Shown: positions 1-32,000, counted from the first letter of the stretch. The stretch: DNA of 32,000 nt from Candidatus Saccharimonadota bacterium (GCA_963706795.1 OY970170.1:810001-842000); one strand, 5' to 3'. Numbers and translations are program-made. The notes: a model not told the origin generated them from the letters alone.

Positions 1-1
1 A

Positions 2-3000
2 ACAACGAGTGCTGCGACAGCAAACTCAGTAAAAACTCTCTGGGATAGTATCGTCGGCAAACTTACAGGAAGCGGAACCGTGAATTATATTCCAAAATTT
101 AACTCGACTGGATCAGTTGCAAACTCACAGATCTTTGATGACGGAACCTATGTTGGAGTCGGAACGCCAACACCTACCGAAAAATTCGAAGTCGCTGGAA
201 ATATCAAGCTCTCAGGAGGAGTACCTACCTACCGCATTACCAATCTCGCAAGCCCCATTGGTAATGATGATGCTGCGAATAAGGGGTATGTAGATACCAA
301 GGTTTCTGCAGCGGGAAGTGCAGTCTCAAACAGCTATCTCTCAAACGGATCCTACTATTCAGAAGGAGGATCGCCATATTTTTGTAAGCTCAACACACTC
401 GCAGGAACGGTCCAAAAGATCACTCCAGTCAATCAGAATCAACTCTGTGATACTGCGTCAAATCTCTATTGTAATGCAGGTCTCTGTAATGCTTCGGCAA
501 GTACTATTGCCTCTATCCGCAGTAGCAATCAGCTCGTAAGTGCGAAAGATGACAAGTCATGTTCGGTTAATAACGGGCAGGTCTACTGCTGGGGATATAC
601 TGGAAATGGTCAGAAATATCTCGGTCTCTCGCTTGCGGGTGTAAATGACAGTGGAAACGGACATACATGTGCACTTCTCTGAAATGGTCAGATCAAGTGT
701 TGGGGAACCAATACTTCTGGTCAGCTTGGGAATGGTACAAATTCAGCCTCGTCTATTCCAGTTTCGGTAAGTGGTATCTCAAATGCTATCAAGGTGGTAA
801 CAGGAAGCTCGATGTACAGCACCGCCAATGGTATGAGCTGTGCGCTCCTTGCTGATGGAACAATCAAGTGTTGGGGAAATAACGCAGTTGGCCAGCTCGG
901 CGATACAACTACGACCAATCGAAATACTCCCGTGAGCGTTTCGGGTATCTCAAATGCAATCGATATCGCCATCGGAAATCCAAATGCATCAGCAAGTGCG
1001 ACGGTTTGTGCTGTACTCTCAACAGGTGGAGTAAAGTGCTGGGGATACGGAGGAAATGGTCAGCTCTGAAATGCTGCAAGCTCAAATAGTGCTACACCAG
1101 TAACAGTAAGTAGTCTCACAAATGCACTCCGTATTTATGCATCTGGAGTAGCGGATACCACAAATGGAACAATGTGTGCTCTCATTTCAGACGGTACGAT
1201 AAAGTGCTGGGGTACGCTTCCAGGTGCGAATAGTGCAACGGCTGTGTCTGGTATTACGAATGCAGTTGATCTCTCGATTAGTAACTCGAATGGAAGTTCA
1301 TCTTTTGCTTGTGCAGTCCTCGCAACTGGTTCGATCAAGTGTTGGGGAACAAATGGTTACGGGCAGCTCTGAGATGGAACACAAACAAACTCAGCCACTC
1401 CTGTAACGGTTGCTGGTATCTCAAATGCGCTCAAGGTCTATACCTCTATGAGTGCTGCAGGTACAGCCTATGCCTATGCCTGTGCGCTCCTTGCAGATGG
1501 TACCATCAAATGTTGGGGAAATGAAGTAAGTGGACAATTTGGAGATGGAACAGCCAGTGCTCTCAGACTCACGCCAGTAACAGTAAATGGTATCACGAAT
1601 GCAATTGATCTCTCAATTGCTCAAACTTCTGGATCTGATGGATCATCATTTGCCTGTGCGACACTCGCAAATGGTCAGGTAAAATGTTGGGGAGCTGCTA
1701 GCGTAAATCAGCTTGGATATGCCTCTACGACAACCGCAACGTCGCCAGTAACTGTACAGGGGATTTTTACTGCTCAAAAAGTATTCGTAACAGGAAATTC
1801 ATCATCATCGACAGTTTCACAATGATATGCCTGTGCTATCCTTGCAGAAGGTGGTATCTCATGTTGGGGACAAAATTCTGACGGTCAGCTCGGAGATAAT
1901 ACAACTGCTAACAAGACCACTGCTACACCGGTGTATTCTGCGAATGGTCTCTATTATACGGGTATTGGAAACCTCACTGCTGATAAGATGAGTCCAGAAC
2001 TCCAGGGTGGATTTACGGCAGCGACAGGAGTTGCCGCGGGTTCATTTCATACATGTGCAATCGATAGTGGAGTTGTAAAATGTTGGGGAACCAACGCCGA
2101 AGGTCAGCTCGGTAATGGTACAACTACTAACTCAACTGCACCAGTTACCGTCACCGGTATCTCCAATGCGAAGCTCATTGCTTCTGGATATATGCATACA
2201 TGTGCAATCCTCACGGATTCGACTGTTCGATGTTGGGGGCTTAATACCGAAGGTCAGCTCGGTAATGGTACTACTACAACCTCTTCGAGTCCTGTAACAG
2301 TTACTGGTATATCAACCGCCGTTGAAATCTCAGCGAGTGATTATGGTACATGTGCGGTTCTCGCAGATGGTACGACAAAGTGTTGGGGGCTCAATACTAA
2401 GGGGCAACTCGGACTTGGTGCTCTTGGTGCTGCAATGAGTAGTTCACCGACAACAGCTTCTGGTGTTACAAATGCAACAAAGATTGCGTCAGGTGCAGAC
2501 CATACATGTATCGTCACAGGAAGTGGTGCTGTGCAGTGTTGGGGTGTCGGAACCTATGGTCAGCTCGGAACAAGTCTCGCAGCGGGATATACCTACACAC
2601 CTACAACGATCTCCGGTATCTCTACCGCGAGTCGTGTCGGAGCGGGCGCAAATCATACGTGCGCCGTCCTCTCTGATGGAACTGCAAAGTGTTGGGGGCT
2701 CAACTCTAATTCACAACTTTCGTCTTCGAGCTACTTCTCAACCAATGTACCAACTATCTCTTTTGTGGGAGCAAGCCTCTTGGCAATGGCTGGAGGAAAC
2801 AATCACAGCTGTACCATCACGACTGACCTTTGAAATGTGAGCTGTACAGGAGGAAACAATCACGGACAAGTAGGAAATAGTTCGGCTGTGGCTTCTAGTA
2901 AGCAGACAGCGATCACATATCCAACGGGTATTGATCCTGCAGCGAGTACGTATTCTCTTGCACTCTGTGAAACCCGAGACGCATATAATGGAAATCTCTG

Positions 3001-3316
3001 AGGCGTTGAATGAGCGAATGGACTCTGTGCTTCGCAGTGTGGTTCTGGATATAAATTTGCGAGAGTTTCTGAGCTTGCAAACTTCAATTCATCGACAGAT
3101 TCGAGTACGGCTTCATTGTTTTATTGGGTGGATGGTGGTGCGATACAGACAAGTGGACCAAGTTCCATAGGTACCTGTTCACAATGGACGAGTTCACTTA
3201 CCGCACTCTATGGATATACTGTCAATTATACGAGCTCAACAAACAATAGGGTAGTCGGTTGAAACACGTCATGTAACAATCAAAAACCACTCCTCTGTGT
3301 CCGAGGCGTCCGTTAA
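2..3316 (+). CDS. Giant RCC1-repeat (beta-propeller) surface/secreted protein, 5'-partial, with a tail-fibre-like N-terminal region and a Cys-containing DUF1554/endostatin-like C-terminal domain
   Basis: Frame 2 is open from base 2 to TAA 3314-3316 once the eight in-frame TGAs (680, 1067, 1370, 1823, 2831, 2999, 3011, 3260) are read as sense. This joins track ORFs 80-682, 794-1069, 1172-1372, 1448-1825 and 1931-2833. There are about 15 copies of the RCC1 signature CAxLxDGxxKCWGxNxxGQLG. The N-terminus (SGTVNYIPKFNSTG..., DAANKGYVD) resembles tail-fibre/adhesin stalk motifs. The C-terminus (YNGNL-G-GVE-G-ANGLC ... CNNQKPLLCV) resembles the DUF1554/endostatin pattern. Confidence 0.85.
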
Positions 3317-3331
3317 TCATTTGCGTTCTTC

Positions 3332-3355
3332 AAGCCTCAGAATATTCTGAGGCTT
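3332..3355 (+). terminator. Rho-independent terminator-like hairpin after the RCC1 gene
   Basis: Perfect 10-bp stem AAGCCTCAGA / TCTGAGGCTT with a 4-nt loop ATAT, 16 nt after the stop codon, followed by a T-containing tail. Confidence 0.6.
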
Positions 3356-3381
3356 GATTGCTCTTTCATCCTCATTTTCAC

Positions 3382-4446
3382 ATGAAACACATCACACAAC
3401 ACCTCGATAAAAAATACATTCCGTGGATTGCATGAGCGCTTTTTGTACTCGCTATTATTGGGCTATATATGGTAGGTGGGCCTCGTGATACAGGAGATAC
3501 AATGACTACAGGTGTGACTGAACAAAATATCCAAAAACCTTCGCCATATCCGACGATTATGACATTGGTATCAAATGAATATCGTAATGATGAGTTCTTT
3601 GTGAGCTGTGAAACTGAGCGTGTAAATGCATGTATTAAGGCGCATGTAACAGAGACATTTGTCGTGACAGGTCCGTTTGTCGACCAGATGAATCTGCTTC
3701 TCCAAAAAAATCTCCAAAATGAGCAACTCGATAATTGTGTGAGTGATAGTGTAAGTGCCTGCTCGGATATGGCTATCAAAAATAAGATGCAAAAGACTCC
3801 GTCTGAGGATGGTTGTCGGTCATATATAGATCCTGCAATTCGCAAAAATTGTTATGATGATCTCTATCCAAAACTCGCACTTCAAAATGACGATATTCGT
3901 CTCTGTGATAAGCTTACTGATATATTCCATGTAAACGGCTGTCAGGATGCATATAACACCCATAAGGCTGTAAAAACCAAGGATATCTCATGGTGTATGC
4001 GTCTTTCGGTGGATTATGCACAAGAGAATTGTAAGAGAAGTTTTGCTCTTGGTGTTGCTCTTGATAGTGGGGATGTCACCTCATGCACGAAGTACTCAGA
4101 TCCACCCGTTGTTCCAGAATGTGTAAAGAATTTTATTACACAGAAGGTCTTTACCTTAGATGCGAGCAACTGTAAAAAGATTGATGATTACGCTTCATAT
4201 TTCGCAAATAAAACTGATCTTGAGTCTCTCTATATCGACTGTGCGGCACAGGCAACTTCGACACGTCTCATGGAACTCGTACGTGACGGTATGAAAAATA
4301 CTGCAAAGATCGATGAATTCCGCGCGATTTGTAATGATCTCACCAATACAAAGGCCAAGACAATCTGTCTACGAAGCCTCGATGATGCTATCGCTGTAGC
4401 ACAAAAAAATACAAATCCTGCACCCGCAACTCCCAAAACTCCGTAA
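3382..4446 (+). CDS. Membrane-anchored Cys-rich hypothetical protein
   Basis: ATG 3382 is in frame with track ORF 3469-4446 through one TGA (3433-3435). The N-terminus MKHITQHLDKKYIPWIA-G-ALFVLAIIGLYMV forms a TM anchor. Cys pairs recur about 20 residues apart (NCYDD...LCDKL, GCQDA...WCMRL, NCKRS...SCTKY, ECVKN...NCKKI). The tail is Pro/Thr-rich (NPAPATPKTP). Confidence 0.7.
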
Positions 4447-4448: not shown

Positions 4449-5024
4449 ATGGATAAATACCTTACAGCTTTTAAATCCCTTCCGACATCCCACAAGATGA
4501 TGCTGGGAGGGATTTTGCTTGCTTGCTTTTGAGTATTTTTGTTTTTTAGGGGATGTACGCCACAAGTGGCTTCTGAGGATTTGAGTCGCTATACAATGCT
4601 CGTCAAAGATGTTGATGGAACCTCGATGGAACCTCTCATCAAAAACGGATCAAAAATCCTGCTCGCAACCGACTACTACAAAGACAAAAAAGTGGCAAAA
4701 CGATGAGATATCGTCGCATATGACTATCCTTGAAATACTCACCCGCTCATCAAAATCATTAAAGCAACAAGCGAAGACACTGTTGCTATCGATCAAAATG
4801 AACAAGATCTCATTATCAATGGTGTGCCTCTCCAAAATTCAGCCGGTCGGTACTATCGCTTTTCACAGCAGGAGCTGAGGATGCTTGGGCTCTATGTCAA
4901 AGATGGACATATTCCGCCTGAGAGCTATCTCATTTTTGGGGACAATGTCATGAATAGCATAGATTCACGCAAATTTGGTGCTGTTTCTCTCGAGAATTTT
5001 AAGGGAAGATTTTTTATCCAATAG
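4449..5024 (+). CDS. lepB: Signal peptidase I (S26 family)
   Basis: Frame 3 is open from ATG 4449 to TAG 5022-5024 with three in-frame TGAs. There is an N-terminal TM segment, the catalytic-Ser box GTSMEPLIKNGS, KR-(TGA 4704-4706)-DIVAY matching the conserved RGD(I/V)V box, IKIIKA, and a C-terminal GDNVMNSIDSRKFGAV box. Confidence 0.9.
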
Positions 5025-5444: not shown

Positions 5445-5894
5445 CTAGTAAGTTCCACGAATGAGTTCGCGCACTTCGCCTTTGATGACTTGTTTTTTGA
5501 CGGGAAGTGTATCACTCTTGTCTACATAGAAGAGCTGTGTGTAGACGGTGCCTGCAAATGAGCCGGTATTTGATACCCATTCGCCTCGGCGGTCAATATA
5601 CTTGTATTGTTCAGTGAGCGCGCCTGTCATGATTGTAAAACGATTGTTGGCAGTATCTTTGTAGAGAGCAAAAATCCCTTTTTCGGTCACACTGGAAGTA
5701 TCGATTTTACGTACCGCATTGATGCCATTGTTTTGCAAGATATAGAGCATCTCATTGCGTGCATAGGTATCTTCGTTTTCGTAGTGTGCTGAGATGATAC
5801 GCGCCATACTTCCGATGACTATGGCGATGATGAGGGCTCAGACAATGACACTGACGAGCGTTTCTCCGCGAGTATCGAGGTGGATGCGATTCAT
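5445..5894 (-). CDS. Pilin/pseudopilin-like protein with an atypical N-terminal motif
   Basis: Minus-strand ATG at 5894 joins through one TGA (5838-5840) to track ORF 5445-5807. The N-terminus MNRIHLDTRGETLVSVIV-G-ALIIAIVIG resembles a prepilin leader plus hydrophobic helix, but reads G-ETLVS rather than G-FTLxE. Confidence 0.45.
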
Positions 5895-5957
5895 ATTCAC
5901 AGAAAAAACGATAAAATGTGTCTCGTGACATAGGGTACTGATTTTTTTTAAAAAAAC

Positions 5958-6605
5958 ATGACAAATCGCTCGTTCGTTTCGAAGACCAGCCAAAAAGGAT
6001 TTACTATTGTCGAAATCATCATCTCGCTCGCTATTGCAGCCCTTGTGATCGTATGAGTTTCGTTTTTTGTTTCGCGTGTGAATTCTGATATCGAGAGTAC
6101 AAAAAATCGTACTCAGGTCCATATCGACATCACTGCTTTCATCGAAAAAATGAATTTTATCCGCACAAATTTCTCAAGCGGAAGCGTGGTCGTGAGTGGT
6201 ACTGATCAATATAATGTCGTACTCTTCACAAATACTGGTGGGACGAGCGGAGCATTAATCGGCGTGGTAGATGCAGATAATACGAATGCGAGCGGAGCGA
6301 CATTTCTTGATCCATCGAGTGCCTTTGGTACATACGGCAACAAAGTGCTTGGGATTACGGAGCTCACAAAATCGCAAGTGCAGGCCATCGTAACATCCAC
6401 TGGCGCAGTATATACGATACCTTTCCGTGCAAATAAGATATACTCTGCTCTTCCGGTCATGGATTTTGTGGCAAATACGTATAATTCTGGCACTCTTTTA
6501 GAGATTGACACCAATGTCTACGAAAAATACCTCGAGCCAGCAAAATGAACATTGGTGAGTCGTGTAAATACGAGTGATATCCTTCCTTTCCATCTTATTT
6601 TTTAG
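5958..6605 (+). CDS. Type IV pilin-like protein (prepilin-type N-terminal cleavage/methylation motif)
   Basis: ATG 5958. The N-terminus MTNRSFVSKTSQKGFTIVEIIISLAIAALVIV matches the KG|FT(L/I)(I/V)E prepilin motif. It is in frame with track ORF 6078-6548 through TGA 6054-6056 and continues past TGA 6546-6548 to TAG 6603-6605. Confidence 0.8.
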
Positions 6606-7802
6606 ATGAAAAATCCCTGATCGCGCGGTAGTATTTTTATATATGCGATTTTGCTTGCGAATTTTGCACTCATTGTCGCGTATATCATCTTTTCGAGTGC
6701 TCAAGAACTCGTCGAAAATCGACGTTATTCCGAACTTGGGGCAAAACTCTCCAAAAACATTGAAGAAAAAGCAGACTCTGCCTTTGATTACGCATCCTCT
6801 CTCAATAACAATGGAAGCGGTTTTACGGACACAAAAACCTGTCCTTCTGTCTCTATGAGCGGATCTGCTAGCAGCAGTACCTATACTGAGACGATCGTCA
6901 CTTCTCCATTTTTTGATGGCACATCCTATAGCTGCTCGGGTGCAAGTACAGGTTTCCCATGAAAGACGCTCAAATTGACTTATAATCCTGCGTACTCGTC
7001 ATTTTCGGGTGTAAGTTTTTTAAATATTCAAACGCTTCTTACTGGTACGAGCACGCTTACTGCGACACTTCCAGATACCGATGCGACCGTTGTTACGATG
7101 AGTAATACTGGTGCGCTGTCGGGTATTGATGCGAACGCAAATTCGGACGATTGTAGATATTCTTCGACAGGTACTTTGGCTTATCCAGACAACAAGATGG
7201 ATGATGATGACCTTGCGCGCAAGGTCATGTATGGCTATGTCCGAAATAATTCCGGTTGGCGTCTCGTGTATTGGAATACACCGACTGTGACCAGTTATAT
7301 CCATAAAAATCTCAATAATACTGGCTCGCTTGCACTTTTCCCTGATAGCTCGGTCTATGCATCTATCTACCTCGATGCGGATGCACCATTTTCGATAAAA
7401 ATCGTCGAGTTTGATAGCGGGAGTTATCTTAAAACCAAGGATCTCAGACCACAAAGTGTCCTCGAAAAAACCTTTACAGGAGGCCAGATCGGATATCTCC
7501 AAAATGATCTCAGCTTTTTTTCCGGCTCGACCAATACGCTCAAATTTGATCTAAAAAGCCACAATTATGGCATATTTCTCTCTGGCACAGGTGCTGATGG
7601 ATCGTTTTTAAGATATCAATTTTCAATGAAGGACCCAAGCGGAACACCTTTCTACATAAATGCGCTCGATGATTCTGATGCAAACGTCCTCAAATACCTC
7701 GGTAATGACATTATTATCGATAGCGAAAACCACTTCTCAAGCAAGGAATACGAAGTCACACGAGAGACATGGCATGTCGGATCGAATAGCTGTGCGAGAT
7801 AG
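6606..7802 (+). CDS. Large pilus-associated (PilX/minor-pilin-like) hypothetical protein
   Basis: ATG 6606 directly abuts the pilin stop. It joins track ORFs 6651-6962 and 6975-7802 through TGAs at 6618 and 6960. The N-terminus MKNP-G-SRGSIFIYAILLANFALIVAYIIF is like the RGS + hydrophobic-helix starts of PilX/ComGG-type minor pilins. The remainder is a Ser/Thr-rich ectodomain. Confidence 0.55.
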
Positions 7803-7831
7803 CCTTTGTAGTCCGAAAAAACTCAAAAAAC

Positions 7832-7860
7832 TTGATAACGAACTCTGGATACGATAGAAT
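7832..7860 (+). promoter_or_regulatory. Sigma-70-like promoter candidate upstream of the cNMP-binding gene
   Basis: TTGATA (7832-7837), a 17-nt spacer, then TAGAAT (7855-7860), about 68 nt upstream of ATG 7928. Pattern match only. Confidence 0.35.
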
Positions 7861-7927
7861 TTTTTTAATCATTTTAGACGGTCTCCGACGAATAATATTC
7901 CTTTTTCTATTGTCTCAATATCCCCCT

Positions 7928-8359
7928 ATGAATCAGGCAGCCATGCTCGAGGTATTATCCTCGTCCCCCGCATTTCGTAAAGGAAGTGCGTGACTCCTGG
8001 AGTCGATTTGTCGCGACTCAAGCATCAAAGAATTCAAAATAAAAACCGAAATCATGCGCGAAGGTGCGGGTCCAGGCGAAGAATGATATATCATCCTCGA
8101 GGGTTCCGCTGATGTATTCATCTGAGGTGAACATGTGACCACTCTTCGTCGTGGAGAAGTCTTTGGAGAATATGCGCCGATTTTTAGACACAATCGCACG
8201 GCCACTATCATCACGAATACCGCCCTTAAATGTCTTGTTCTCGACAAAAGAAGCCTCCTCCAACTTATTGGTCACGGCGCTGGTCTCAATAGTATCATCT
8301 TCCGACGAATCGACGAGAACCGCAAAAACAATCGTGGTATCTTTAAAAATCACTCATAA
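7928..8359 (+). CDS. Stand-alone cyclic-nucleotide-binding (cNMP/Crp-like) domain protein
   Basis: ATG 7928 to TAA 8357-8359 with three in-frame TGAs. The motif string F..G..IMREG..GEE-G-YIILEGSADVFI-G-GEHVTTLRRGEVFGEYA...RHNRTATIITNTALKCLVLDK fits the cNMP-binding beta-barrel (FGE...R(T/S)A phosphate-binding cassette). No DNA-binding or other output domain is attached. Confidence 0.75.
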
Positions 8360-8393
8360 AAACATCCAAGCCTATAGGCTTGGATGTTTTTTT
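8358..8393. terminator. Bidirectional A/T-flanked terminator hairpin between convergent genes
   Basis: AAAAACATCCAAGCC-TATA-GGCTTGGATGTTTTT. The 12-bp GC-containing stem has an A-run before it and a T-run after it, so either strand yields a stem followed by a U-tract. It overlaps the last codons of the minus-strand glycosyltransferase. Confidence 0.7.
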
Positions 8394-9610
8394 AATGAGA
8401 TCAGGATCTTGAGCGAATCGATGTGTTCTATACTCAGGGCAATAGTCGCTGCATGCTTGGCTGCAATAAGTCCGTCATAAATTTTAATATACTCCGCAAT
8501 AATTTTTCATGATCGAAATGCTTCTGAAGTAACCACTGCCGCAGCTGCCATGAGGATGCGCTTACTCTGGTTATGGATAATCTCATCTATTCTCACTTGC
8601 ATCTCTTCGAGCGAATCAACAATAAAGCCATTTACCCCATTTTTGATAATCTCAGGTACGACTCAAAAAGCAAAAACGATGGGAATGAGGCCCTGCGACA
8701 TCGCTTCAATAAGACTCAGACAAAATCCCTCATACATGGAAGCATTGAGATAAATATCTCCATAGTGCTTTTGGAGCAATTTTGGAATCTTTTCTTTTGC
8801 GACACTCAGATGCGTATCCGTACCGACTATCTGATTAAAGAAGCGCTGATATTCTGCAGTTTTGTGACACATTCCAATAATGACCTTGTGGGCATTTGGA
8901 TACTTCCTAAAAATATAAATAAGCCTGAGGAGTCATTTGAGTTTTACGGTGAACTCGTCATTTCAGAGACGTCCAAGATAGACGAGATGTGCCATCTCTT
9001 TTACCTGACTTCTTCGGGTATTTACAAACCAATAGTCCTCAATCGCATTGTGGATGAGGTGGATTTTATTCCGTGGAACATCATGCTTAATGAGCTCGAG
9101 TCTGACTTTTTCGGAGGTGGCGATGACGGCATCACTCTTCTTGGCTACATATATCTCGATCTTTGAGATATCCTTTAGGGGCTTGAGTGGATCAATGCTT
9201 GGGGATATAATGCCTGCCACATGTAATTCTTGCAGGATAGTTGCGAGTTCTGGATGTTCTTTTTTGAGCGCATTTGCAGAAGGAACTGCCGCTAAAAAAC
9301 CCGCTGTGGTCGATCCAAAATGCGAGATAATAGGGATTCCCGCACCTATAAAGGCGAGTGGCGTGTAGGTCGTACCTTGGATAATATCGTAGTGCTTATT
9401 TGTGTCCTGACGCTTAATGAGCGAATGAAAAAAGAGAATATTTGCAATGCCGGCGAGTTCCTTGGAGAGCAGATCAATGCTTTCTTCGGGATAGAGCTTG
9501 TCTACCTCATAGCCGCTTTGCTCGAGACTCTCGATAATAGTCTCATTTATATAGTGGGCTCCTGTTTTAAATTTCTTTTCTGTGTGAATGAATAAGATAT
9601 TTTTGCTCAT
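8372..9610 (-). CDS. Glycosyltransferase, GT4/GT-B family
   Basis: Minus-strand ATG at 9610. Track ORFs 8963-9610 and 8663-8872 plus intervening segments are joined by four TGAs (8963, 8933, 8663, 8507), ending at TAG 8372-8374. It carries the GT-B C-terminal signature ...YLNASMYEGFCLSLIEAMSQGLIPIV... (the E-x-F-G/EAMA-type box) and LVYLGRL-G-. Confidence 0.8.
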
Positions 9611-9820
9611 GATCGGTATTTAAAGAATTAAATACTTTCATTTTTACAATTGAAAAGTCGCAGGATAGGAGCATCCTCAGGAAACAACAAAAGTGCGGAG
9701 AAAGAATTTACGAACGTCTGCCGTCACTGTTTCGTCTTGAGAAAGCATGTCATTTTACGTCTAAACGGTCTTTCTGCAACTCGCTTCTGTCTGCGTATAT
9801 TTGCCAACTATTTATCCTAT

Positions 9821-10966: not shown

Positions 10967-10999
10967 AAAAACATCTCCCATTTTGGGAGATGTTTTTTT
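10965..10999. terminator. Bidirectional A/T-flanked terminator hairpin
   Basis: AAAAAACATCTCCC-ATTTT-GGGAGATGTTTTTTT lies between the acyltransferase stop (10964-10966) and the stop of the convergent minus-strand gene (11008-11010). Confidence 0.75.
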
Positions 11000-11007
11000 A
11001 TCTAACA

Positions 11008-18508: not shown

Positions 18509-18509
18509 T

Positions 18510-20446: not shown

Positions 20447-20475
20447 AAATACCCCGCTCGAGCGGGGTATTTTTA
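20447..20475. terminator. Bidirectional palindromic terminator hairpin
   Basis: AAAATACCCCGCTCGAGCGGGGTATTTTTA is a perfect palindrome centred on CTCGAG and flanked by A/T runs. It lies between the HxlR stop and the stop (20473-20475) of the convergent 623-aa gene. Confidence 0.75.
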
Positions 20476-22559: not shown

Positions 22560-25346
22560 ATGCGAATTTCTTCCATTGCATCCATCCTCCTATCATTCCT
22601 CCTTCCATTTTCTACATTTGCTGTCGGCATTCAGGGGTCTTCGACCGCCTCAGGTGACTGGGGAAGCGGATTTTGCCAAAAAATCTCACTCGCCAATACC
22701 GAAAGCACTTCTCAAAGTTGGTCTGAGATTCGTTTTACGCTCAAAAATGCCAAGATTACAAACTCTTGGAATGGAGTATTTACATCGGCCAATGATGTCT
22801 ATACCATCAAACCCGTCGCCTGGAATAATCCCATCGCTGCAGGTCAGTCGATCGATATTGGATACTGTGGAGAAGGTTCCGGCCGTCCTATAGATATCGA
22901 TGTAGTTGGTGGTTCGTCTTCTACAAATCCTACAACTCCTCCAGTTATTCGTCCTGCACCAGTACATCTCGTCAAGGACGCACTTACTCTCGATGCTACC
23001 GTCAATGACTGGCAAACAGGGTACTGCCGTACAATCACACTCAAAAATACTGGTACAGCTGCACTCTCAAATTGGAAATTTGCATTCGACAGTACTGCCA
23101 CCATGAATCTCTGGTCAGGGAAAGTTACTAAAGCAGGTAATACTGTTACTGTGACTCCCGAAGCTTGGAATGGAAGTATTACCCCAAATGGAGTTGTTGA
23201 GCTCGGATTTTGTGCCGATGGTACGACATCCGACTCTAATTGGAATCTCCTCGGAAGTGACTCAGGTCCTATTATCCCAACTCCCACTCCCACAAATGGA
23301 AGCTGTGGTGCTGACAATGGGAAAGCACTGAGTAATACTCCTGTAAATCTCTGTAGCGCAGGCTCGGCGACTAATGTTTCTGGCAATGGTCCATGGGCAT
23401 GGTCATGTCTCGGACAGAATGGAGGCTCTAATGCTTCGTGTTCTGCGACAAAATCAGTGACTCCACCAAATCCAGTCAATGGATCATGTGGATCAGACAA
23501 CGGCAAGACGCTCGACACACCACCAACTGCACTCTGTATTGCAGGTACAGCATCTAATGTATCAGGAAACGGACCATGGTCATGGTCATGTAATGGTCAG
23601 AATGGTGGATCAAGTGCAACATGTGCCGCAAATAAGTCTCAGGTAACACCTCCAAATAACAGCGGAGCACTCATCTACACGATCGATGCTAACAAAAACC
23701 GCTCAGCTATTAGTCCATATATCTACGGACGCAATTTTGGAGATGGAAATACTGAAAACTTCGATGCGATGCGTCTCGGAGGAAATCGTCTCACAGGTTA
23801 CAACTGGGAAAACAATGCCTCAAATGCCGGTTCTGACTGGAATCATTCAAGTGACAGCTATCTCGGTGACAGCAATGTTCCAGGGAAGACCGTTACTGAT
23901 TTCCATGACAAAAATCGGAGTCTCGGCGTGGCATACTCACTCGTGACTATGCCAATGGCTGGCTATGTAGCTCGCGACAAGAACGGAACAGTCAACCAAA
24001 ACGAAACCGCTCCATCAAATCGATGGGATGATGTAGTGGTTGCAAAAAATAGTGCATTTTCGCTCACGCCAAATCTCACAGACGGACATGTCTACAGCGA
24101 TGAATTCATCAATTTCCTCGTAAATAAATACGGCAAAGCCAACACCGCAACCGGTATCAAAGGCTACGCACTCGACAATGAACCAGCTCTTTGGACATCC
24201 ACTCATTCACGACTTCATCCAAATAAGGTCACAGTCTCCGAGATGATTACCCGCAGTACTGCACTCTCCAAGGCAATCAAAGCCGTCGATGCTACTGCCG
24301 AAATCTTTGGTGCGGTTACCTATGGATTTGGAGAACACTACAATCTCCAAGATGCTCCGGATTGGTCAAATTACTCATCGACATACGCAACGTATATCGA
24401 TGCCTTCCTTGCAAATCTCAAATCTGCAAGCGATACTCAGGGGAAGCGTCTTCTCGACGTTCTTGATATCCACTGGTATCCAGAAGCACAGGGAACAACT
24501 CTTGCTGGTAACAAAGTCCGCATCCTCGAAAATAACTCGGATCCTGATGTGGCTCGCGCTCGAATGCAGGCACCACGATCACTCTGGGATCCAACATATC
24601 GCGAAGACAGCTGGATCGGACAGTGGTATGCAAGTACTGCGTTCCCACTCATTCCAAAGCTCAAGGCTTCGATCGATCGCTACTACCCAGGAACGAAGCT
24701 CGCCATCACCGAATTTGATTACGGAGGAAATAACCATATCTCAGGTGGTATTGCCACAGCTGATGTCCTCGGTATCTATGGGAAGTACGGAGTATATTTC
24801 TCAAGCTATTGGGGAAATGTAGATGGATATGTTTCAAGCGCCTACAAACTCTACCGCAATGTTGATGGAGCAAATACAACATTCGGAGATACTGAAATCG
24901 ACGCGACAAATCCTGATATCGAAAATACCTCTATCTACGCCTCTACTGAGGGCGCTGGTGGTAAGGCTCACGTCATTCTCATCAACAAGAAAAATACACC
25001 AGTAAACATCCATCTCAATCTTGCGAATATCACGGCAAACAAGGCTGATGTCTACGGATTTGATGCTACAAATACAGCTATTACTAAGCGAGCCTCGGTA
25101 AATGTGGGTGCAAACGGACTGGATTATACTCTTCCTGCGCTCACTGCGGTTCACCTTATTTTTGCTGGTACTTCTACAACTGTTGCACCGACAACGATTG
25201 CGCCAAAGGTTACTACGACTACCGTCCCAGTGACACAGACTACCAAGACAGTTACTCCCGCGGCAGTGATTACTCCCGCAGTAACCACTGTGAAAAAACC
25301 GGTTAAAAAGGTTATTATCAAAAAACCAAAGGTAGTGAAGCCATAA
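22560..25346 (+). CDS. Secreted glycoside hydrolase family 44 (endoglucanase/xyloglucanase-type) with two N-terminal CBM2-like modules, two Cys-rich ~61-aa repeats and a Thr/Pro/Lys-rich tail
   Basis: Intact 928-aa track ORF with signal peptide MRISSIASILLSFLLPFSTFA. CBM2-like pattern: GDWGSGFCQKISLAN...W...F.L....ITNSWNG...WNNPIAAGQSIDIGYCG, and a second copy NDWQTGYCRTITLKN.... GH44-like catalytic strings: MRLGGNRLTGYNWENNASNAGSDWNHSSD, YALDNEPALWTSTHSRLHP, LDVLDIHWYPEA, LAITEFDYGG. No in-frame TGA. Confidence 0.85.
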   Translation: MRISSIASILLSFLLPFSTFAVGIQGSSTASGDWGSGFCQKISLANTESTSQSWSEIRFTLKNAKITNSWNGVFTSANDVYTIKPVAWNNPIAAGQSIDIGYCGEGSGRPIDIDVVGGSSSTNPTTPPVIRPAPVHLVKDALTLDATVNDWQTGYCRTITLKNTGTAALSNWKFAFDSTATMNLWSGKVTKAGNTVTVTPEAWNGSITPNGVVELGFCADGTTSDSNWNLLGSDSGPIIPTPTPTNGSCGADNGKALSNTPVNLCSAGSATNVSGNGPWAWSCLGQNGGSNASCSATKSVTPPNPVNGSCGSDNGKTLDTPPTALCIAGTASNVSGNGPWSWSCNGQNGGSSATCAANKSQVTPPNNSGALIYTIDANKNRSAISPYIYGRNFGDGNTENFDAMRLGGNRLTGYNWENNASNAGSDWNHSSDSYLGDSNVPGKTVTDFHDKNRSLGVAYSLVTMPMAGYVARDKNGTVNQNETAPSNRWDDVVVAKNSAFSLTPNLTDGHVYSDEFINFLVNKYGKANTATGIKGYALDNEPALWTSTHSRLHPNKVTVSEMITRSTALSKAIKAVDATAEIFGAVTYGFGEHYNLQDAPDWSNYSSTYATYIDAFLANLKSASDTQGKRLLDVLDIHWYPEAQGTTLAGNKVRILENNSDPDVARARMQAPRSLWDPTYREDSWIGQWYASTAFPLIPKLKASIDRYYPGTKLAITEFDYGGNNHISGGIATADVLGIYGKYGVYFSSYWGNVDGYVSSAYKLYRNVDGANTTFGDTEIDATNPDIENTSIYASTEGAGGKAHVILINKKNTPVNIHLNLANITANKADVYGFDATNTAITKRASVNVGANGLDYTLPALTAVHLIFAGTSTTVAPTTIAPKVTTTTVPVTQTTKTVTPAAVITPAVTTVKKPVKKVIIKKPKVVKP

Positions 25347-25355: not shown

Positions 25356-25402
25356 AAAAAATCCCCTCCGAAACTCGCAAGAGTGAAGGAGGGGATTTTT
25401 TA
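25356..25402. terminator. Bidirectional terminator hairpin shared by GH44 and the convergent PRTase-like gene
   Basis: AAAAAATCCCCTCC (25356-25369) pairs with GGAGGGGATTTTTT (25388-25401) around an 18-nt loop that holds an inner ACTC/GAGT stem, with an A-run upstream and a T-run downstream. Confidence 0.7.
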
Positions 25403-25471
25403 TTTGGGTTCTTCTTCGTCTTGAGAATATTTTGTAGTGAATATCTTATAGAGTCGATTTCAAGTAATGGT

Positions 25472-26296
25472 TCACATGAGCTCTTTGTATCGTGCCTTTT
25501 CTTTATTTACGATAGTTTTGTGTGAGTAGGTGCCTGCTCGAGCAATGATATCGAGTTTTTGTTCGTCAGTAAGCGACGATTTGTACTTACTCAGGTCTAT
25601 GTTTGCACGACAGACGAATACAAAAATCTGACTGTAGTAACCAGTGGATTCTGCGAGTTTTCGCAGATCATCAAGCGTCTCACCACTGTGTGTATTGTCA
25701 TCAAAAATGAGTAGCCAGTTCTTCTTTTTGATCTTTTCTTTAATTTCTCCTTCGATGGTAGTGTCGCGTAATACTTCAGAAAATGGATAGTCTGTGAGTT
25801 CCGAAAAATTGTTCGCATTTTCTACGTCATAGAGTGAGTACACGATATTTCCGCTATTGATAAGCACTTGTCCATTTTTTATCACATGTGTGAAGCTTTG
25901 CTTGGCGAAGAGTCCCGTGAGCGTTCCACCATAATTCACGCCCATGATATGTAACACGTGTTCTAGAGGGTTATAACCAGCTTCTATTATTGTATTGAGC
26001 GCGTTCTGACCTGTTCGCATCATGACAAGTGGATCGTTTTCTTCCCTATAGAGACGAATGAGTTTTTTATAAGCGATACCCTTAATGATTTCTGCATCAG
26101 CTTTTTTTACTTTTGGTGCTGAACCATAGTTATCGATCAGCCGGAGAAGTGCGCGTAGTAACTCTAGTCCATCGCTCAAATCTGCACGCATGGAAGGATC
26201 TTTTCCTGCAGTGACTTCAGCGATGTCATTAGGGAGATCTCCAATGATTTTTATATAGGCTGCTGATTTTTTTCAAATGAGAATGTCCGTATACAT
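25472..26296 (-). CDS. Phosphoribosyltransferase (type I PRT)-like domain protein
   Basis: Track ORF 25472-26191 extended to the first in-frame ATG (26296); the start is uncertain, and the frame stays open up to the TAA at 26426-26428. The PRPP-loop-like signature is NWLLIFDDNTHSGETLDDL (hydrophobic x4-DD-x-x-x-SG-x-T), with an upstream IMGVNYGGTLTGLFA. Confidence 0.65.
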
Positions 26297-26425
26297 TTCT
26301 GTATAACTATCGAGTAGCGTTGTTAATCATTGATTACCTTTAAAACCAATCAGTTGTTTCTGTAGCTCTTTGAATTTTTTGAATGCTTCTGGGACTTTGT
26401 TTTTTATCTGTTGGACGTGAACATT

Positions 26426-27547
26426 TTTAAATACCAGACTTCATTTGTACTCAGGATTGAGGAATTGTTCGCTGTACATAATCTGCGAAGTATTCTGCAA
26501 AAATGCGAGCATATTTATTTTTGCATCAAGAAGTCCAAGCAAGAGTTTTTGCATGGATTTTGGTAAATTCGTCTGAACATTCTGATTGATAATCTCATTG
26601 ATATCAATCCCAAATACGGCTCTTGCATAGGTTATGGAGCTATTTTCTCTTCCAATAAACTCTATAAAATGTAAGGCTGCATCATAGATCTCACGATGAG
26701 CTCATCTTGCAATAACATTTTTTAGATTACTCGCAATGTAATACAAATGCTCCAAAACACCGATCACCTGCGGAACATATTCGGTCTGAAATGCATCTAG
26801 TTTTGGGTGACCAATAAAGTTTGCAGGAGCGTCAGCACGCTCTTTGATATGCTGCATTCTTTTAGGGGAAAGAGTCTGAATAAGCGTATCAATAAATTTT
26901 GAATCTTTGTCGATAATCTCATTCATAAGCGATCACATAACCTGCGTGCTGTGGCACTTTAAATGCTGATCAATCGAATTATAGTGCTTTAAAAAATCGG
27001 TAATGAACTCATCTGTCTCTACGTCGATAACCTTATAAGAATTGACCGACTGAGATCGATTAATTTCCGCAATACTCACGCTCGGGAAAAGAAAATAGTA
27101 TTTTTCATTTCTAAATATGAGCTTTAAAGATTTTTCTTTGCTGAGACTAGACTTTAGATAACCAAAATCATCTATAAATTCTGTCATATATTGCTGAAGG
27201 AATCCTTCATCCATGATTGATCAGCCGTTTTTTGGATCAAGGATATACATGAGCTTCTCGAGTTCTGCTAAGTCATCCTTATTAAAACTGATGGCACCAT
27301 CCACATAAAAATATTCTTTAAGCACCTCACGAATATCAGGCTCAAGAAATATTTTGTCTATCTCTGATTTCTTCTCAAGTATACGTTCCAGTCGTTCTTG
27401 GATATTTAAGTGTGAATGCGCCTGCTTGGATTGTTCATATCTTTGAATATATTTTTCCGACATAAGATCGGATGCCATAAAAATATCTTCTGCACCAAGA
27501 GGCCTTCCATCATCTGTTCCATTGATCACTACACTATAATTTTTCAT
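26426..27547 (-). CDS. Hypothetical 373-aa protein with no recognisable motif
   Basis: Minus-strand ATG at 27547. Track ORFs 27221-27547, 26933-27214 and 26702-26926 share a frame and are joined by TGAs at 27221, 26933, 26702 and 26450. It ends at TAA 26426-26428. The ATG is 1 nt after the upstream DUF2809 stop. Confidence 0.65.
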
Positions 27548-27548: not shown

Positions 27549-27917
27549 CTATTTTTTCGTTATAGAATCCAACCCCACACATGCAACTCCACCAACTACA
27601 TACGCCACCAAATCCATCAGATCAAATGTTGAGCCAAAAATAATCATGATCCATCTGTGCTCACTGAGTCATAATATTTGAGCCACATGCATGCCCTGAG
27701 CGCATTCCAAAATAATTCCAATTATCACGCATCCCATCGCGATTTTCCAGGCTTCATATCGGATAAAAGTCCGGAAAAGACTATAGAGAAGTATGATGGC
27801 GAATACGTCTCATAAAAATGGCCTAACAATGCTATCATGTACAAAAACTGCTATACAAATTTCGAGCAGCAGGAGACTTAAAAACCCCATGAAATAACGT
27901 ATATCAAAGTGTTTCAT
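27549..27917 (-). CDS. DUF2809-like small integral membrane protein
   Basis: Not in the ORF track because two TGAs break it. Minus-strand ATG at 27917 to TAG 27549-27551. The sequence is MKHFDIRYFMGFLSLLLLEICIAVFVHDSIVRPFL-G-DVFAIILLYSLF ... LECAQG ... IFGSTFDLMDLVAYVVGG. The IVRPxxGD, E..Q and GxTFDxxDLxAY strings match my recollection of DUF2809. Confidence 0.6.
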
Positions 27918-27941: not shown

Positions 27942-28610
27942 TTATTTTTTCATGTCCAGTTCGATAATTTCTGGAAGGCACATATCGAACGCTTCTACGC
28001 ATTCTGGGCAGAACATTTTGCCACTATTGAGATGCATAAAATCCATGGTCGCATCAATATCGACGGATGGTTTATATATTCTCTTTTCTCGCAGGGCATC
28101 AAATACATCCGCAATACTTACAATCCGAGAGGCTTGCGAGATTTCCAAACCTTTTAGTCACTGTGGATAACCAGTGCCATCATATTTTTCGTGATGCGTA
28201 CGAGCGACATCAGCTGCGTATTTTATGATTGGCCATTTAGCAATGAGTGTATCACTTTCGAGAATACGGGCTCATTTTTCGGAATGCTCTTCCATGATTT
28301 TTTGCTCATCAGGATCAAGTCTTCCATTTTTGCGGAGTATCGCATCGGGAATGGCTATTTTGCCGATATCATGAAGCGCAGCAGCAATTCAAAGTGCGGC
28401 ATTTATTTCGCTACACAGTCCGAGCACCTTTCAGATTTTCATGGCGATAACACTCACGCGTGTCGCATGAGATCCAGTATCGCTATCACGATACTCCATA
28501 GTGACCATGAGTGTGTGCAATACGGCCTCGCGTAGTTTTTTAGAAGATTGACTCTCTTGCTCGAGCTTCCGAGTAAGTAGGGATCAGCGTAATTCATTCA
28601 GAGCCAGCAT
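27942..28610 (-). CDS. Stand-alone HD-GYP domain phosphodiesterase
   Basis: Minus-strand ATG at 28610. Track ORF 27942-28148 extends upstream through five TGAs (28158, 28272, 28389, 28431, 28584). Motifs are YRDSDTGSHATRVS, AAALHDIGKIAIPDAILRKNGRL, HHEKYDGTGYPQ-(TGA 28158-28160)-LKG (the HHExxDGxGYPxGL signature) and IADVFDALREKRIYK. Confidence 0.88.
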
Positions 28611-28679: not shown

Positions 28680-29123
28680 TTAATTCTCTTGAATGTTTTT
28701 TGAAGTCACCTTGCGCATATCTGCCAAAATAGATGCTGTGACGTCTTGCGGAAGCTCTTCCTTTGCAAAAGGGGAGTAGTTGCCTGTTGGACGAGGATCA
28801 GTAAAAATATGGTCGCAGTATTTAATAGATGCATTTCGTCGTGGAATGAGATGCACATGGAGATGATTCCAGTCATTTCAAAAAATCGCGATATTCTCGC
28901 GGTCAAATGGCGCTACTTGGTTCAGATTCTTCTTCCAATTTGGAATAATGACATCAAAGAGCTCATCTCGTTCGCTTGGCGTCATGTCGGTCGCAAAATC
29001 AGCATCTTCTCTCACGGCTGCTGCATAACAGCGACCAAGATAGGGTGATTGGTTTTGCTGGAGATAGAGATTCCAGTGAGTATAACGCGCAATCAAATAT
29101 GCTTCGTAGGGATCGTTGAACAT
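28680..29123 (-). CDS. HIT (histidine triad) family protein
   Basis: Minus-strand ATG at 29123. Track ORF 28878-29123 continues through TGA 28878-28880 to TAA 28680-28682. The histidine-triad motif is NDWNHLHVHLIPRR (HxHxHxx). Confidence 0.75.
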
Positions 29124-29196: not shown

Positions 29197-29610
29197 CTAC
29201 TTTCTCTCACGTGCTTCTCGTGTAAGCAGTTTGTTAATAGCTATACGTGTAAATTCTTTTGCTTGTTCTTCATGCTCTGGGTTGATTTTGTGTGGTGACA
29301 TTGGAGCAGTGAATTGGCCTCCAACAGATTCAATTAAATCAGTCAAATGCTTTGATCCTACTGTAGTTCATACAAGCCATTGTACCATTCCCGAAATCAG
29401 CTCAGCCTCCCGCGCAGATGTCGTAGCTCCGAGAATATTATCGAGTGCAACGCGAGGTTCACCTTGTCCTCTGAGATAGAGCATCTTGAGCCATCTGTCA
29501 GCAACAGCACGCTCGAGAGAATCTTCTTCTAAAACTCGCGCTTGTGTTTTTCTATTTCAAAGATGCGCAGTGATAGGATAGCCGGATCCTGGCTTATTGG
29601 GGCTAGACAT
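29197..29610 (-). CDS. Hypothetical protein (137 aa)
   Basis: Not in the ORF track. Minus-strand ATG at 29610 to TAG 29197-29199, open with two in-frame TGAs. It starts MSSPNKPGSGYPITAHL-G-NRKTQARVLEEDSLERAV... and ends with the basic tail LLTREARERK. No motif recognised. Confidence 0.45.
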
Positions 29611-29782
29611 ATCGGTTTGTAAAAAAATGCTCCTTTTTGTCAAATCTATGAACTATTTATAGCATTTATGTTGTAAGTGTCAATGTATGAAAAATGGTTT
29701 TTGCGATCAAAAAAACGTATTGAGCTCACTTTGACAACATCGCTTTTTTGGCTACTGTGCGAGCAATAACACCGACAATCTC

Positions 29783-30187
29783 ATGTCCACAATTACTGTT
29801 CAAAATTTCCACGAGCACGAAATTACAAATGCTCTTGGCCTCAGTGTAGAAGCAAGAGAATTACAGCACGTTCTTGATAACACAAAGATGGACGCGCTCT
29901 CTGTGATTACTGGGTACCAAATCCAGTCTTACCGACAAGTAGAGCAAAATACTGAATCTGTACGTGAAGCATTTTCAGAGCAAATTACCCAAATTCTCAA
30001 AGATCAGCCAGGATTAATGGTGGCAAACGAAGAGCTCCAGTCTTCATATCAACGAGCCATTCGTGCTTTGCTCAAGAGCAGTTTTGCGACTGAGCGCAAC
30101 TGGGTGATTCGTCTGCTTTGGAACCAATTTAATGGAGTAAAGCCACCAGAGAAGACACTCTGAAATATCATCATTATGAATCTCTAG
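29783..30187 (+). CDS. Hypothetical protein (134 aa)
   Basis: Track ORF 29783-30163 extended through TGA 30161-30163 to TAG 30185-30187. Predicted to be helical. No motif recognised. Confidence 0.5.
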
Positions 30188-30196: not shown

Positions 30197-30616
30197 CTAA
30201 AACTTTACAATCTCTACAAGATCGTGGCAGACTTTTTGCTCAATGCCCGCTGTATCTAAAATCCCAAAAGTTCACACAAAGTGGACTTTATTTTTTTGTG
30301 TGTAACCAGAAGTCACGAGATCAATATTGATTCGGCCGTAGCGCTTGTCGTCATGGTGGTACCAAAAGACGCAGTTTACAATCATCTGCTCGCCAAGCTC
30401 AGTATCTGTGAGTCGTATCTTGATGTTCGTGTTTCCAGGAATCGCAGAATCCACAACAAAATGCTTGGTCTGTATCGCTTCGAATGTTTCTTCGAGTTTG
30501 TCGATAAGCTTTGCAAGTTCTGCCTTAAAATTTCAGGCGAACATGACTTTTGACTTGATGGGCGCGACGCGCATGTCGCCCATATTGAGGGCATATTTGA
30601 GGAGATTTGGCGCCAT
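30197..30616 (-). CDS. Hypothetical protein (139 aa)
   Basis: Minus-strand ATG at 30616. The frame includes track ORF 30272-30454 and passes TGAs at 30533 and 30272 to TAG 30197-30199. The start is uncertain, since the frame is open up to 30706. No confident motif. Confidence 0.45.
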
Positions 30617-30650
30617 TCTTGGTGTAAGATGAGAGAGGTTGAATACTGCT

Positions 30651-31163
30651 TTAAGCCAAGCTTTTAATCCACTTAGTCAGGCCTTCTTCGCTGAGCTCGA
30701 GTCTATTTAAAAAATCCTTGTCCATAATACTGAGTCCTATAACTTTGGAGTGTTTCTCTAAAAAAGAATCATGATCCTGGATAAGCTCGGGAAGTCTTTT
30801 GAGAGATTCGGTGTAGCCTTTTGCTTCATAGAGTTCTCTAAGAAGGGTCTCGCTCAGATCGAGACTGATTACAAATATGCGATAGTTGTGGGGCTCCAGC
30901 CATCATTGCATTTTAGCCCATTCACGATCGACACTGGCATCAAAAATAAAGGACTTTTTGGACTCAATAAGTTCGAGGCAGCGGGCATTTCGCCGAGAAA
31001 TATACTCATCCTCTCTGAATTCACGAAAATCTTCTATAATTTCGGATCGCAGAGCATCGTTATTAAAAATCGGAAGTCCGAATTTGTAGCTCAAATAGGT
31101 TGCAATGGGAGTCTTCGAACTTCCAATGCATCCGGCGAATGTTACGCAGATAGGAGTATTCAT
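30651..31163 (-). CDS. Small P-loop NTPase/kinase-like protein with a deviant Walker A
   Basis: Track ORF 30903-31163 extended through TGA 30903-30905 to TAA 30651-30653. The N-terminus MNTPICVTFAGCIGSSKTPIATYL resembles a Walker A loop, but reads GxxGxSKT rather than GxxxxGK(S/T). There is a later hydrophobic-strand-plus-Asp element (SFIFDAS). Confidence 0.45.
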
Positions 31164-31209
31164 GCATGAGAGCTTACTTTAATGACACTCTTTTTCAAGT
31201 ATCTCAGAA

Positions 31210-32000
31210 CTACCTCACTTCGTATCCCAAATTGCCTCCTATTCTTTCGCGGATATCAAAATACATGGCATTGATTTCTTCATTGGTCAGGGTTCTCTCA
31301 ATGGAACGGAATACGATTTTGATACTGAGAGATTTTTTGTCGGATCAGAATTTTGCGTCGTCTTCGTAAATGTCGGTGATTTTTACTTCTTCGATGAGAT
31401 CATCGCCTATGTCGCGGATTACTCAGGTTATGGCAAAGAAATTGGATTCGGTATCGCGAGTAAGCTCGAATTCTCCGGACTTCTCTTCTTCTTTGGTGTC
31501 TTTTTGAAATTGCGATTTGGGGACAATCATAGAGATTTCTTTGTAGACAGGAGGGAATGAACTGACTTCTTTGTAGGGCTCAAAATTGCCCCATTGTTTG
31601 GTAATGCGTGCGTCTTCGCTCCAGAAAATACGGATGTCTGAGATCTCCTTCATTGCCATTGCGAGCCGCTCGAGTCCAAATCAAAACGCCCAGCCGTTAT
31701 ATTTTGCTGGATCGACGCTGAGCTTTTCGAGGACAGTTGGGTGGATGACGCCTGCTCCAGTGACTTCGAGCCATTTGCCGCGATAGAGAACTTCTACCTC
31801 GAGACTGTCGGTTGTATATGGGAACGAATCTTCATTAAATCGGTATTCGATATTCTCACCAAATAGCGCTTTGATCGTATTTGCAAGAACCTCTTTGAGG
31901 GTCGATCCATCAATGATTTCTTGGTTTTTTTCACAGATACGAAATCCATCAATCTGATGGAAACATTCATGATGACTCTTATCGAGCTCATCAACACGAT
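31210..32000 (-). CDS. pheS: Phenylalanyl-tRNA synthetase, catalytic alpha-type core fused to a C-terminal FDX-ACB-like anticodon-binding domain (N-terminus outside the window)
   Basis: The minus-strand frame is open from the window edge to TAG 31210-31212 with TGAs at 31681, 31423 and 31345. Motifs are HHECFHQIDGF (motif 2 region), FPYTTDSLEVEV...WLEVTGAGVIHPTVL, and GWAF-(TGA 31681-31683)-FGLERLAMAMKEISDIRIFWSEDARITKQW (motif 3). These are followed by SSFPPVYKEISMIVP ... F-G-SDKKSLSIKIVFRSIERTLTNEEI. Confidence 0.85.

Follow-up and report, generated by a model that had tools for sequence, protein, structure and literature searches.

How are the many in-frame TGA triplets of a 32,000-base stretch of bacterial DNA (GCA_963706795.1, OY970170.1:810001-842000; 43% GC) read? 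A reading of this stretch, called the window below, from the sequence alone had proposed that the whole of it is translated with TGA as glycine, that is, with genetic code 25. Our best explanation, of which we are nearly certain, is that the window comes from the chromosome of a BD1-5/Gracilibacteria bacterium using this code. UGA serves as a fifth glycine codon, with termination at UAA and UAG only. UGA as glycine is already known; the window adds one more case of a code that has been well described for this lineage. To identify the amino acid at TGA, we chose three lines of evidence that are independent of any choice of translation table, namely homologues of solved structure, a comparison of orthologues at the DNA level and the paralogous RCC1 repeats of a single gene, and all three agreed with the proposal.

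Reading frames and the residue at TGA

The gene set was defined as the longest non-overlapping frames between TAA and TAG stops, a definition from which the lack of internal TAA and TAG follows and, in part, also the termination at these two triplets only. With TAA and TAG as sole stops, about 30 genes were resolved (29, or 30 including the pilin-like gene at 5445-5894 on the minus strand), the coding density was 93% and the ends of the open reading frames (ORFs) matched domain ends. The 29 genes were terminated by 17 TAA and 12 TAG, and none of them required TGA as a stop. In-frame TGA occurred 76 times in 9,940 codons, spread over 24 of the 29 genes; the earlier estimate of about 73 in about 8,060 codons was close. 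Summed over six frames, ORFs of at least 100 amino acids came to 38 kb under the standard code and 83 kb with TGA freed, the controls being 54 kb with TAG freed and 60 kb with TAA freed. Coverage of the window by ORFs of at least 150 amino acids rose from 59% under the standard code to 98% with TGA as sense (75% with TAG freed and 73% with TAA freed), and in standard-code control contigs ORF coverage changed by only a few percent when TGA was freed.

Domains of Pfam and NCBIfam spanned the TGAs as single stretches without internal TAA or TAG. The DUF7897/CiaB match ran from 6 to 594 of the 595 profile positions across four TGAs, and both Pirin cupin domains were matched across five; Tex (four TGAs), HD_5 (five), the RCC1 repeats, signal peptidase S26, GT4, Acyl_transf_3, two ECF sigma factors, HxlR, DUF2809 and the PheRS-like ligase behaved in the same way. 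These results bear out the claim of the sequence-only reading that the ORF fragments are split by TGA and by no other triplet. If the code were standard, the TGAs would have to be nonsense mutations in pseudogenes, or errors of sequencing or assembly, and on the 1.27-Mb NCBI/ENA contig one called gene does end at such a TGA (protein P0018, see below). About half of all six-frame stop triplets are TGA, so that 76 TGAs among 76 interruptions, with no TAA or TAG, have a probability of ~1e-23 under random nonsense, and there were no frameshifts. In addition, an independent assembly (Logan, run ERR12037365) was identical to the window across 11,554 bp, indicating that the TGAs are not sequencing errors, and TGA was found at glycine columns in orthologues from more than 20 other genomes. 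Damage to standard-code genes is therefore vanishingly improbable.

We then asked which residue the TGAs face in homologues of solved structure from standard-code organisms. Counting the best homologue per protein only, glycine stood at 13 of the 24 aligned TGAs and tryptophan at none (P = 2.7e-9 with a glycine background of 7.5%). In the alignments shown, which were with three entries of human mitochondrial PheRS, TGA 31681 of the PheRS-like ligase corresponded to the glycine of GWAFG(L/F)GLERL, the invariant glycine of motif 3. The Tex protein, compared with PDB 2oce, had glycine at 15185 and 13427, glutamate at 14177 and a gapped region at 14816; its conserved context at a TGA read as glycine was EG(S/A)TVPFIARYRKE. 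All five Pirin TGAs fell on glycine in PDB 7te5 and also in the orthologue on L003 (JBMOJK010000002.1, Deming_bin.574), a syntenic contig of a different but related species whose proteins are 50-74% identical to those of the window. In the HD-GYP protein, TGA 28158 was the glycine of GYPxG in three of four structures and TGA 28272 was glycine in two of the four. For HxlR, TGA 20225 was glycine in YodB and 1yyv, and TGA 20381 (LTEKG) in all five structures shown. At signal peptidase TGA 4704, the enzymes of E. coli and S. aureus have glycine (RGDIV) and 4me8 has phenylalanine, and at TGA 8663 of the GT4 protein each of the four structures shown has the conserved glycine of GG(I/V)PE. Within the RCC1-repeat gene, TGAs 1067 and 1370 lie at the glycine of GQLG, which is GGN-coded in 9 of the 11 other repeats, as the sequence-only reading had noticed; all seven TGAs that it had used as anchors (1067, 1370, 4704, 15185-15187, 20381, 28158-28160 and 31681-31683) were found where it had placed them and in the peptide context it had described.

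For the comparison of orthologues, a Tex protein scan with one genome per species gave 25 loci (56-76% identity), which were translated with TGA as a separate symbol. The residues facing the TGAs of the window (n = 115) comprised 56 glycines, 32 TGAs, 20 aspartates, all from one variable column, and no tryptophan. In the reciprocal count, the window had glycine opposite 139 of the 228 orthologue TGAs, cysteine opposite one and tryptophan opposite none. Glycine or TGA made up 75% at TGA columns, 81% at GGN columns and 0% at TGG columns, the last of which faced tryptophan in 83% of cases. The maximum-likelihood meaning of TGA was glycine, more than 120 ln units above the next residue (aspartate). 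Across 24-25 Gracilibacteria orthologues of Tex, three of the four TGA columns were wholly glycine or TGA. The number of TGAs per Tex gene ranged from 1 to 29, yet the sum of TGA and GGN stayed at ~37-51, and TGA and GGN are interchanged rapidly between related species. Scoring the residues aligned to TGA columns, a check that the sequence-only reading had put forward, thus favored glycine and never tryptophan.

Genetic code 4, in which UGA is read as tryptophan, is used by Mycoplasmatales, several insect endosymbionts, Hodgkinia and Zinderia. It shares with code 25 a sense UGA, a presumed loss of release factor 2 and the same ORF structure, and when genes were called automatically on this organism's Logan contig, tryptophan was indeed put at the TGAs (protein P0121, see below). 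However, tryptophan was missing from the TGA columns in all three counts (0/24, 0/115 and 0/228), in contrast to the 83% at TGG columns; it would be implausible at the invariant glycine of PheRS motif 3 or of GYPxG, and the relatives of the organism are Gracilibacteria, not Mycoplasmatales. We consider code 4 exceedingly unlikely. If the code were otherwise standard, insertion of selenocysteine or programmed read-through would likewise have in-frame UGA translated, and UGA is the selenocysteine codon in many bacteria. Here, the TGAs occupy 76 sites in 24 unrelated genes, and their use is genome-wide, context-free and at glycine columns; cysteine stood opposite TGA at no PDB position and in one of the 228 orthologue comparisons, and an Rfam scan of the window gave no match to any RNA family, the selenocysteine insertion sequence (SECIS) included. 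We give this explanation next to no credence. Together, these comparisons of sequences and structures support glycine as the meaning of TGA in the window, as in code 25.

Several observations weigh against this assignment. Eleven of the 24 structure-aligned TGAs lie opposite residues other than glycine (D, K, E, A, F, R or V); these positions are variable or gapped, and GGN columns are likewise not fully conserved. Tex column 14177 is aspartate or glutamate in most orthologues. Two TGAs are close to C-termini (HxlR codon 102 and codon 176 of sigma factor 'a'), and, judged from the sequence, they may have kept a residual stop function. Finally, ARAGORN found no tRNA gene in the window, in locus L001 or in locus L065, which reaches 10 kb past the window end, and no tRNA with anticodon UCA in 25 related Gracilibacteria loci, where only tRNAs for Asn, Leu and Lys were detected. 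The identity elements of glycine tRNA are G1:C72, C2:G71, G3:C70 and U73.

As a general explanation of C-terminal TGAs, relic stops were rejected, since four genes had a TGA in the last 15 codons with ~3 expected, that is, without enrichment. At codon 176 of sigma 'a', the TGA at 12850 shares bases with the start codon of the downstream gene in an ATGA (12849-12852), and the frame continues for 12 codons beyond it to a TAG. In standard-code bacteria, stop and start of sigma/anti-sigma pairs classically overlap in this way, and this particular TGA may be the relic of a former stop.

With glycine as the meaning of UGA, published work on the lineage suggests how decoding would proceed: a dedicated tRNA-Gly with anticodon UCA would read UGA, and release factor 2 would have been lost, leaving release factor 1 alone to terminate at UAA and UAG. 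Neither prfA nor prfB was found within the sequence examined, which is a fraction of the 1.27-Mb source genome. A tRNA-Gly(UCA) is expected in the code-25 lineage (PMC8629427), prfB was missing from all BD1-5 genomes then available, with prfA present (PMC6851277), and UGA as glycine has been confirmed by proteomics (PMC4032931).

Lineage and variant of the code

Since some NCBI-labelled Gracilibacteria genomes use the standard code (PMC8629427), direct evidence of recoding is needed, and it is present here. According to the gTranslate preprint, users of code 25 fall within GTDB class JAEDAM01, in the orders BD1-5 and Absconditabacterales. Almost all of the best Tex relatives (up to 76% identity) bore the title Candidatus Gracilibacteria or Patescibacteria, and the recoding signature, a standard-code ORF coverage far below that with TGA as sense, was seen in nearly all Tex loci from L003 to L026. 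L002 (GC 0.55), with only one TGA in Tex, had a slight signature. These Tex matches and the TGA signature, on which the placement rests rather than on a marker-gene tree, support assignment to the BD1-5/Gracilibacteria group (GTDB class JAEDAM01, Patescibacteria). The sequence-only reading had placed the contig in these lineages of the candidate phyla radiation, and relatives sharing the same recoding signature agree with it.

NCBI translation table 25, the Candidate Division SR1 and Gracilibacteria code, reportedly goes back to Campbell 2013, Rinke 2013 and Hanke 2014. The window resembles it in having in-frame UGA in most genes at glycine columns, UAA and UAG as stops, a Gracilibacteria/BD1-5 affiliation and a small source contig (1.27 Mb). 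We noted no essential difference from table 25; the 43% GC of the window is among the higher values within the published range (0.21-0.53). TGA supplies 10.5% of the glycine codons of the window. Across the Tex loci L002-L026, the share was ~3% at GC 0.55 and 50-80% at GC 0.24-0.27; these estimates come from a crude, self-trained gene caller, and some of its ORFs may be spurious. In the low-GC relatives, glycine is therefore written mainly as UGA, and the modest share in the window accords with a GC content that is high for the lineage. As the share of TGA rises when GC falls, these results suggest that mutational bias is the main determinant of how often the codon is used, and that some genes avoid it.

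We also considered an extended code of the Absconditabacteria (SR1) type, in which UGA is glycine and CGA and CGG are read as tryptophan in addition. The sister lineage has the same UGA reassignment, and Codetta predicted CGG as tryptophan for some Gracilibacteria, which perhaps read this codon so (PMC8629427). Unlike in the Absconditabacteria code (Shulgina & Eddy 2021), CGA is frequent in the window (84 codons, or 84 per 10,000), and both CGA and CGG (17 codons) fall on conserved arginines, including the invariant ones of FIARYRKE in Tex, GLERL in PheRS and R162 of the HD-GYP protein. These positions point to plain table 25 and not to the extended code, and the nearest relatives are labelled Gracilibacteria. 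We therefore regard the extended code as very unlikely for this organism.

Gene content of the window and public annotations

The genes resolved with TAA and TAG as stops are listed in the table. In the L003 orthologues, glycine was found opposite the TGA at 5838-5840 of the pilin-like protein, opposite both TGAs of the N_methyl protein (6054 and 6546), opposite TGA 6960 of the following protein and opposite two of the three TGAs of the Acyltransferase_3 protein. The TGA columns of the cNMP-binding protein held G/A, E and D/H in orthologues and are therefore variable positions. The protein encoded at 3358-4446 (plus strand) had no family match in Pfam or NCBIfam. The protein at 20473-22344 (minus strand) scored 575 bits against the NCBIfam model 'invasion protein CiaB', with a cut-off of 250; CiaB is the Campylobacter invasion antigen family.

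Table. Genes of the window with TAA and TAG as stops, and the in-frame TGAs they contain (L003, related syntenic contig; Logan, independent assembly)
Feature	Position	Strand	Basis	In-frame TGA
RCC1-repeat surface protein, 5' end cut by window	2-3316	+	Pfam WD40_RLD/RCC1, E = 8e-162	8 (680, 1067, 1370, 1823, 2831, 2999, 3011, 3260)
Hypothetical Cys-rich membrane-anchored protein	3358-4446	+	ORF between TAA/TAG stops	1 (3433)
Signal peptidase I (S26)	4449-5024	+	Pfam Peptidase_S26, E = 1e-20	3 (4530, 4704, 4731)
Pilin-like protein, RGETLVSVIV prepilin motif	5445-5894	-	L003 orthologue, 60% identity	1 (5838-5840)
N-terminal-methylation (type IV pilin-like) protein	5958-6605	+	Pfam N_methyl	2 (6054, 6546)
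Hypothetical secreted or pilus-associated protein	6606-7802	+	L003 orthologue, 59% identity	2 (6618, 6960)
cNMP-binding domain protein	7832-8359	+	Pfam cNMP_binding	3 (7991, 8084, 8123)
Group 1 glycosyltransferase (GT4)	8372-9610	-	Pfam Glycos_transf_1	4 (8963, 8933, 8663, 8507)
Acyltransferase_3 membrane protein	9650-10966	+	Pfam Acyl_transf_3	3 (10157, 10193, 10616)
Polymer-forming (bactofilin-like repeat) membrane protein	11008-12186	-	Weak FapA/Bactofilin matches	5
ECF sigma factor 'a'	12325-12891	+	Pfam Sigma70_r2 and r4_2	2 (12508, 12850)
Small membrane protein, possible anti-sigma	12849-13211	+	ORF only	1 (13074)
Tex transcription accessory protein	13208-15277	-	Pfam Tex domains	4 (15185, 14816, 14177, 13427)
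ECF sigma factor 'b'	15410-16009	+	Pfam match	0
Membrane-anchored extracytoplasmic protein, 534 amino acids, anti-sigma-like position	16014-17618	+		0
Secreted protein, two Kazal domains	17642-18508	+	Pfam Kazal_1/2	0
Pirin	18551-19420	-		5 (19151, 18941, 18899, 18785, 18572)
Flavodoxin-like fold NAD(P)H oxidoreductase	19442-20044	-	Pfam Flavodoxin_2, E = 2e-38	0
HxlR-family regulator	20132-20446	+		3 (20225, 20381, 20435)
CiaB-family protein (DUF7897)	20473-22344	-	Pfam DUF7897, E = 6e-163	4
Secreted GH44 glycoside hydrolase, two CBM2 domains	22560-25346	+	Pfam match	0
Large hypothetical protein	25400-27547	-	ORF; 687 amino acids as called on Logan contig	8
DUF2809 membrane protein	27549-27917	-	Pfam DUF2809, E = 5e-17	2
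HD-GYP (HD_5) phosphodiesterase	27942-28610	-		5 (28584, 28431, 28389, 28272, 28158)
Hypothetical protein	28680-29123	-	Called on Logan contig	1
Hypothetical protein	29197-29643	-	Called on Logan contig	2
Hypothetical protein	29687-30187	+	Called on Logan contig, later start	2
Hypothetical protein	30197-30616	-	Called on Logan contig	2
Hypothetical P-loop-like protein	30651-31163	-	Called on Logan contig	1
Single-chain PheRS-like ligase, class II core and FDX-ACB, N-terminus beyond window	31210-31998	-		3 (31681, 31423, 31345)

Gene order is partly common to the window (5445-19420 and 22560-25346) and L003. The shared order comprises the pilin-like genes, the cNMP-binding, Acyl_transf_3, Tex and sigma 'b' genes, the genes of the membrane protein and the Kazal protein, Pirin and GH44; the window has in addition the GT4, bactofilin-like and sigma 'a' genes interspersed, and the flavodoxin-fold, HxlR and CiaB genes between Pirin and GH44. 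The gene of the Kazal protein (17642-18508) follows immediately on those of an ECF sigma factor and a membrane protein; the Kazal-type serine protease inhibitor domain is mostly known from animals. Of the 858 leucine codons, 449 were CTC, a preference for one codon that is unusually strong in a genome of 43% GC.

The full PheRS-like gene (10764-12023 on the minus strand of L001) encodes 419 amino acids, with the class II catalytic core and the FDX-ACB domain in a single chain. This is the architecture of the mitochondrial monomeric PheRS. The best PDB matches of the ligase were human mitochondrial PheRS, and its best NCBIfam match was 'PheS-related mystery ligase SrmL', at 219 bits, short of the cut-off of 300. 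Gracilibacteria-type contigs yielded more than 100 similar proteins, and one PheRS-like gene was seen within the sequence examined. A literature search of limited reach returned nothing relevant on a bacterial single-chain PheRS of the mitochondrial type.

Two public versions of this protein illustrate how its TGAs have been handled. P0018, from the 1.27-Mb NCBI/ENA contig, is a 262-residue stub that ends in GWAF, just before the TGA at 31681-31683. P0121, from Logan, is full length and reads GWAFWFGLERL, with tryptophan at all three TGAs including the invariant motif-3 glycine. The errors of such entries pass into homology searches, domain statistics and structure predictions, and table 25 is obligatory for any annotation of this contig. 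The sequence-only reading had gone further in stating that every standard-code annotation of it would be wrong; this was overstated, since five genes without TGA (15410-16009, 16014-17618, 17642-18508, 19442-20044 and 22560-25346) are called identically under any code.

Two other contigs from reference genomes carry a Gracilibacteria-like Tex, with 8 in-frame TGAs in L015 (JANOJH010000729.1, titled as a metagenome-assembled genome of Bdellovibrio sp.) and 10 in L019 (CAZZNY010000001.1, a 920-kb contig titled Candidatus Peribacteria). ORF coverage under the standard code and with TGA as sense was 0.41 vs 0.96 for L015 and 0.29 vs 0.90 for L019, which is the signature of TGA recoding. Both are probably mis-binned or mislabelled.

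Genes free of TGA

TGA use was over-dispersed among the genes of the window (simulation P = 0.0005). Five genes contained none, namely those of sigma 'b', the 534-residue membrane protein, the Kazal protein, the flavodoxin-fold protein and the GH44 hydrolase with its CBM2 domains. The GH44 gene had 0 TGA in 84 glycine codons (P = 9e-5) and the flavodoxin-fold gene 0 in 12. The adjacent genes of sigma 'b', the membrane protein and the Kazal protein together had 0 in 54, of which 30 belong to the membrane protein (0/27 in its L003 orthologue) and 19 to the Kazal protein (0/24 in L003). The RCC1 gene was depleted, with 8 TGAs in 146 glycine codons.

The sigma 'b', membrane protein and Kazal genes and a GH44 fragment were free of TGA in L003 too. 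In the other genes shared with L003, one TGA position was common to both species, as against 0.96 expected, among 22 TGA-bearing columns. TGA positions are thus statistically independent between the two species, indicating that synonymous turnover is saturated. The four TGA-free genes, compared between the window and L003, had 0 TGA in 55 conserved glycine columns (P = 2e-5). The pattern looks like an avoidance of UGA-glycine that is specific to certain genes. Gene GC content, strand and availability of GGA were examined as causes of the lack of TGA, and none of them fits.

All 34 metagenome relatives of the GH44 protein, an enzyme of endoglucanase type, were at most 52% identical and lay on standard-code contigs, which makes a foreign origin plausible and suggests that the gene was acquired from outside the lineage. 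That it is a recent transfer, a relic 'not yet ameliorated', is unlikely, as the L003 orthologue is also free of TGA and TGA positions are independent elsewhere. Foreign ancestry does not by itself explain why TGA continues to be avoided. In other Gracilibacteria loci, TGA-depleted outliers were a Zn-type alcohol dehydrogenase, a triosephosphate isomerase, an aldehyde dehydrogenase and a chemoreceptor-like protein, all named by reading their sequences and not by a family search.

Expression level, secretion and gene transfer are candidate drivers of the TGA-free pattern. That selection keeps the sigma 'b'/membrane protein/Kazal cluster and GH44 free of UGA as a glycine codon, with RCC1 strongly depleted, is a tentative idea that we hold to be unlikely. 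It draws on the lack of TGA from these genes in a second species at about 55-68% protein identity, despite a complete turnover of TGA positions in the other shared genes. If it were true, decoding of UGA would be costly or conditional in Gracilibacteria, for which a limiting tRNA-Gly(UCA), misreading, and vulnerability to stress or to attack on the anticodon would be candidate causes. The UGA content of a gene would then be a gene-level signal of expression or robustness and not a neutral synonym.

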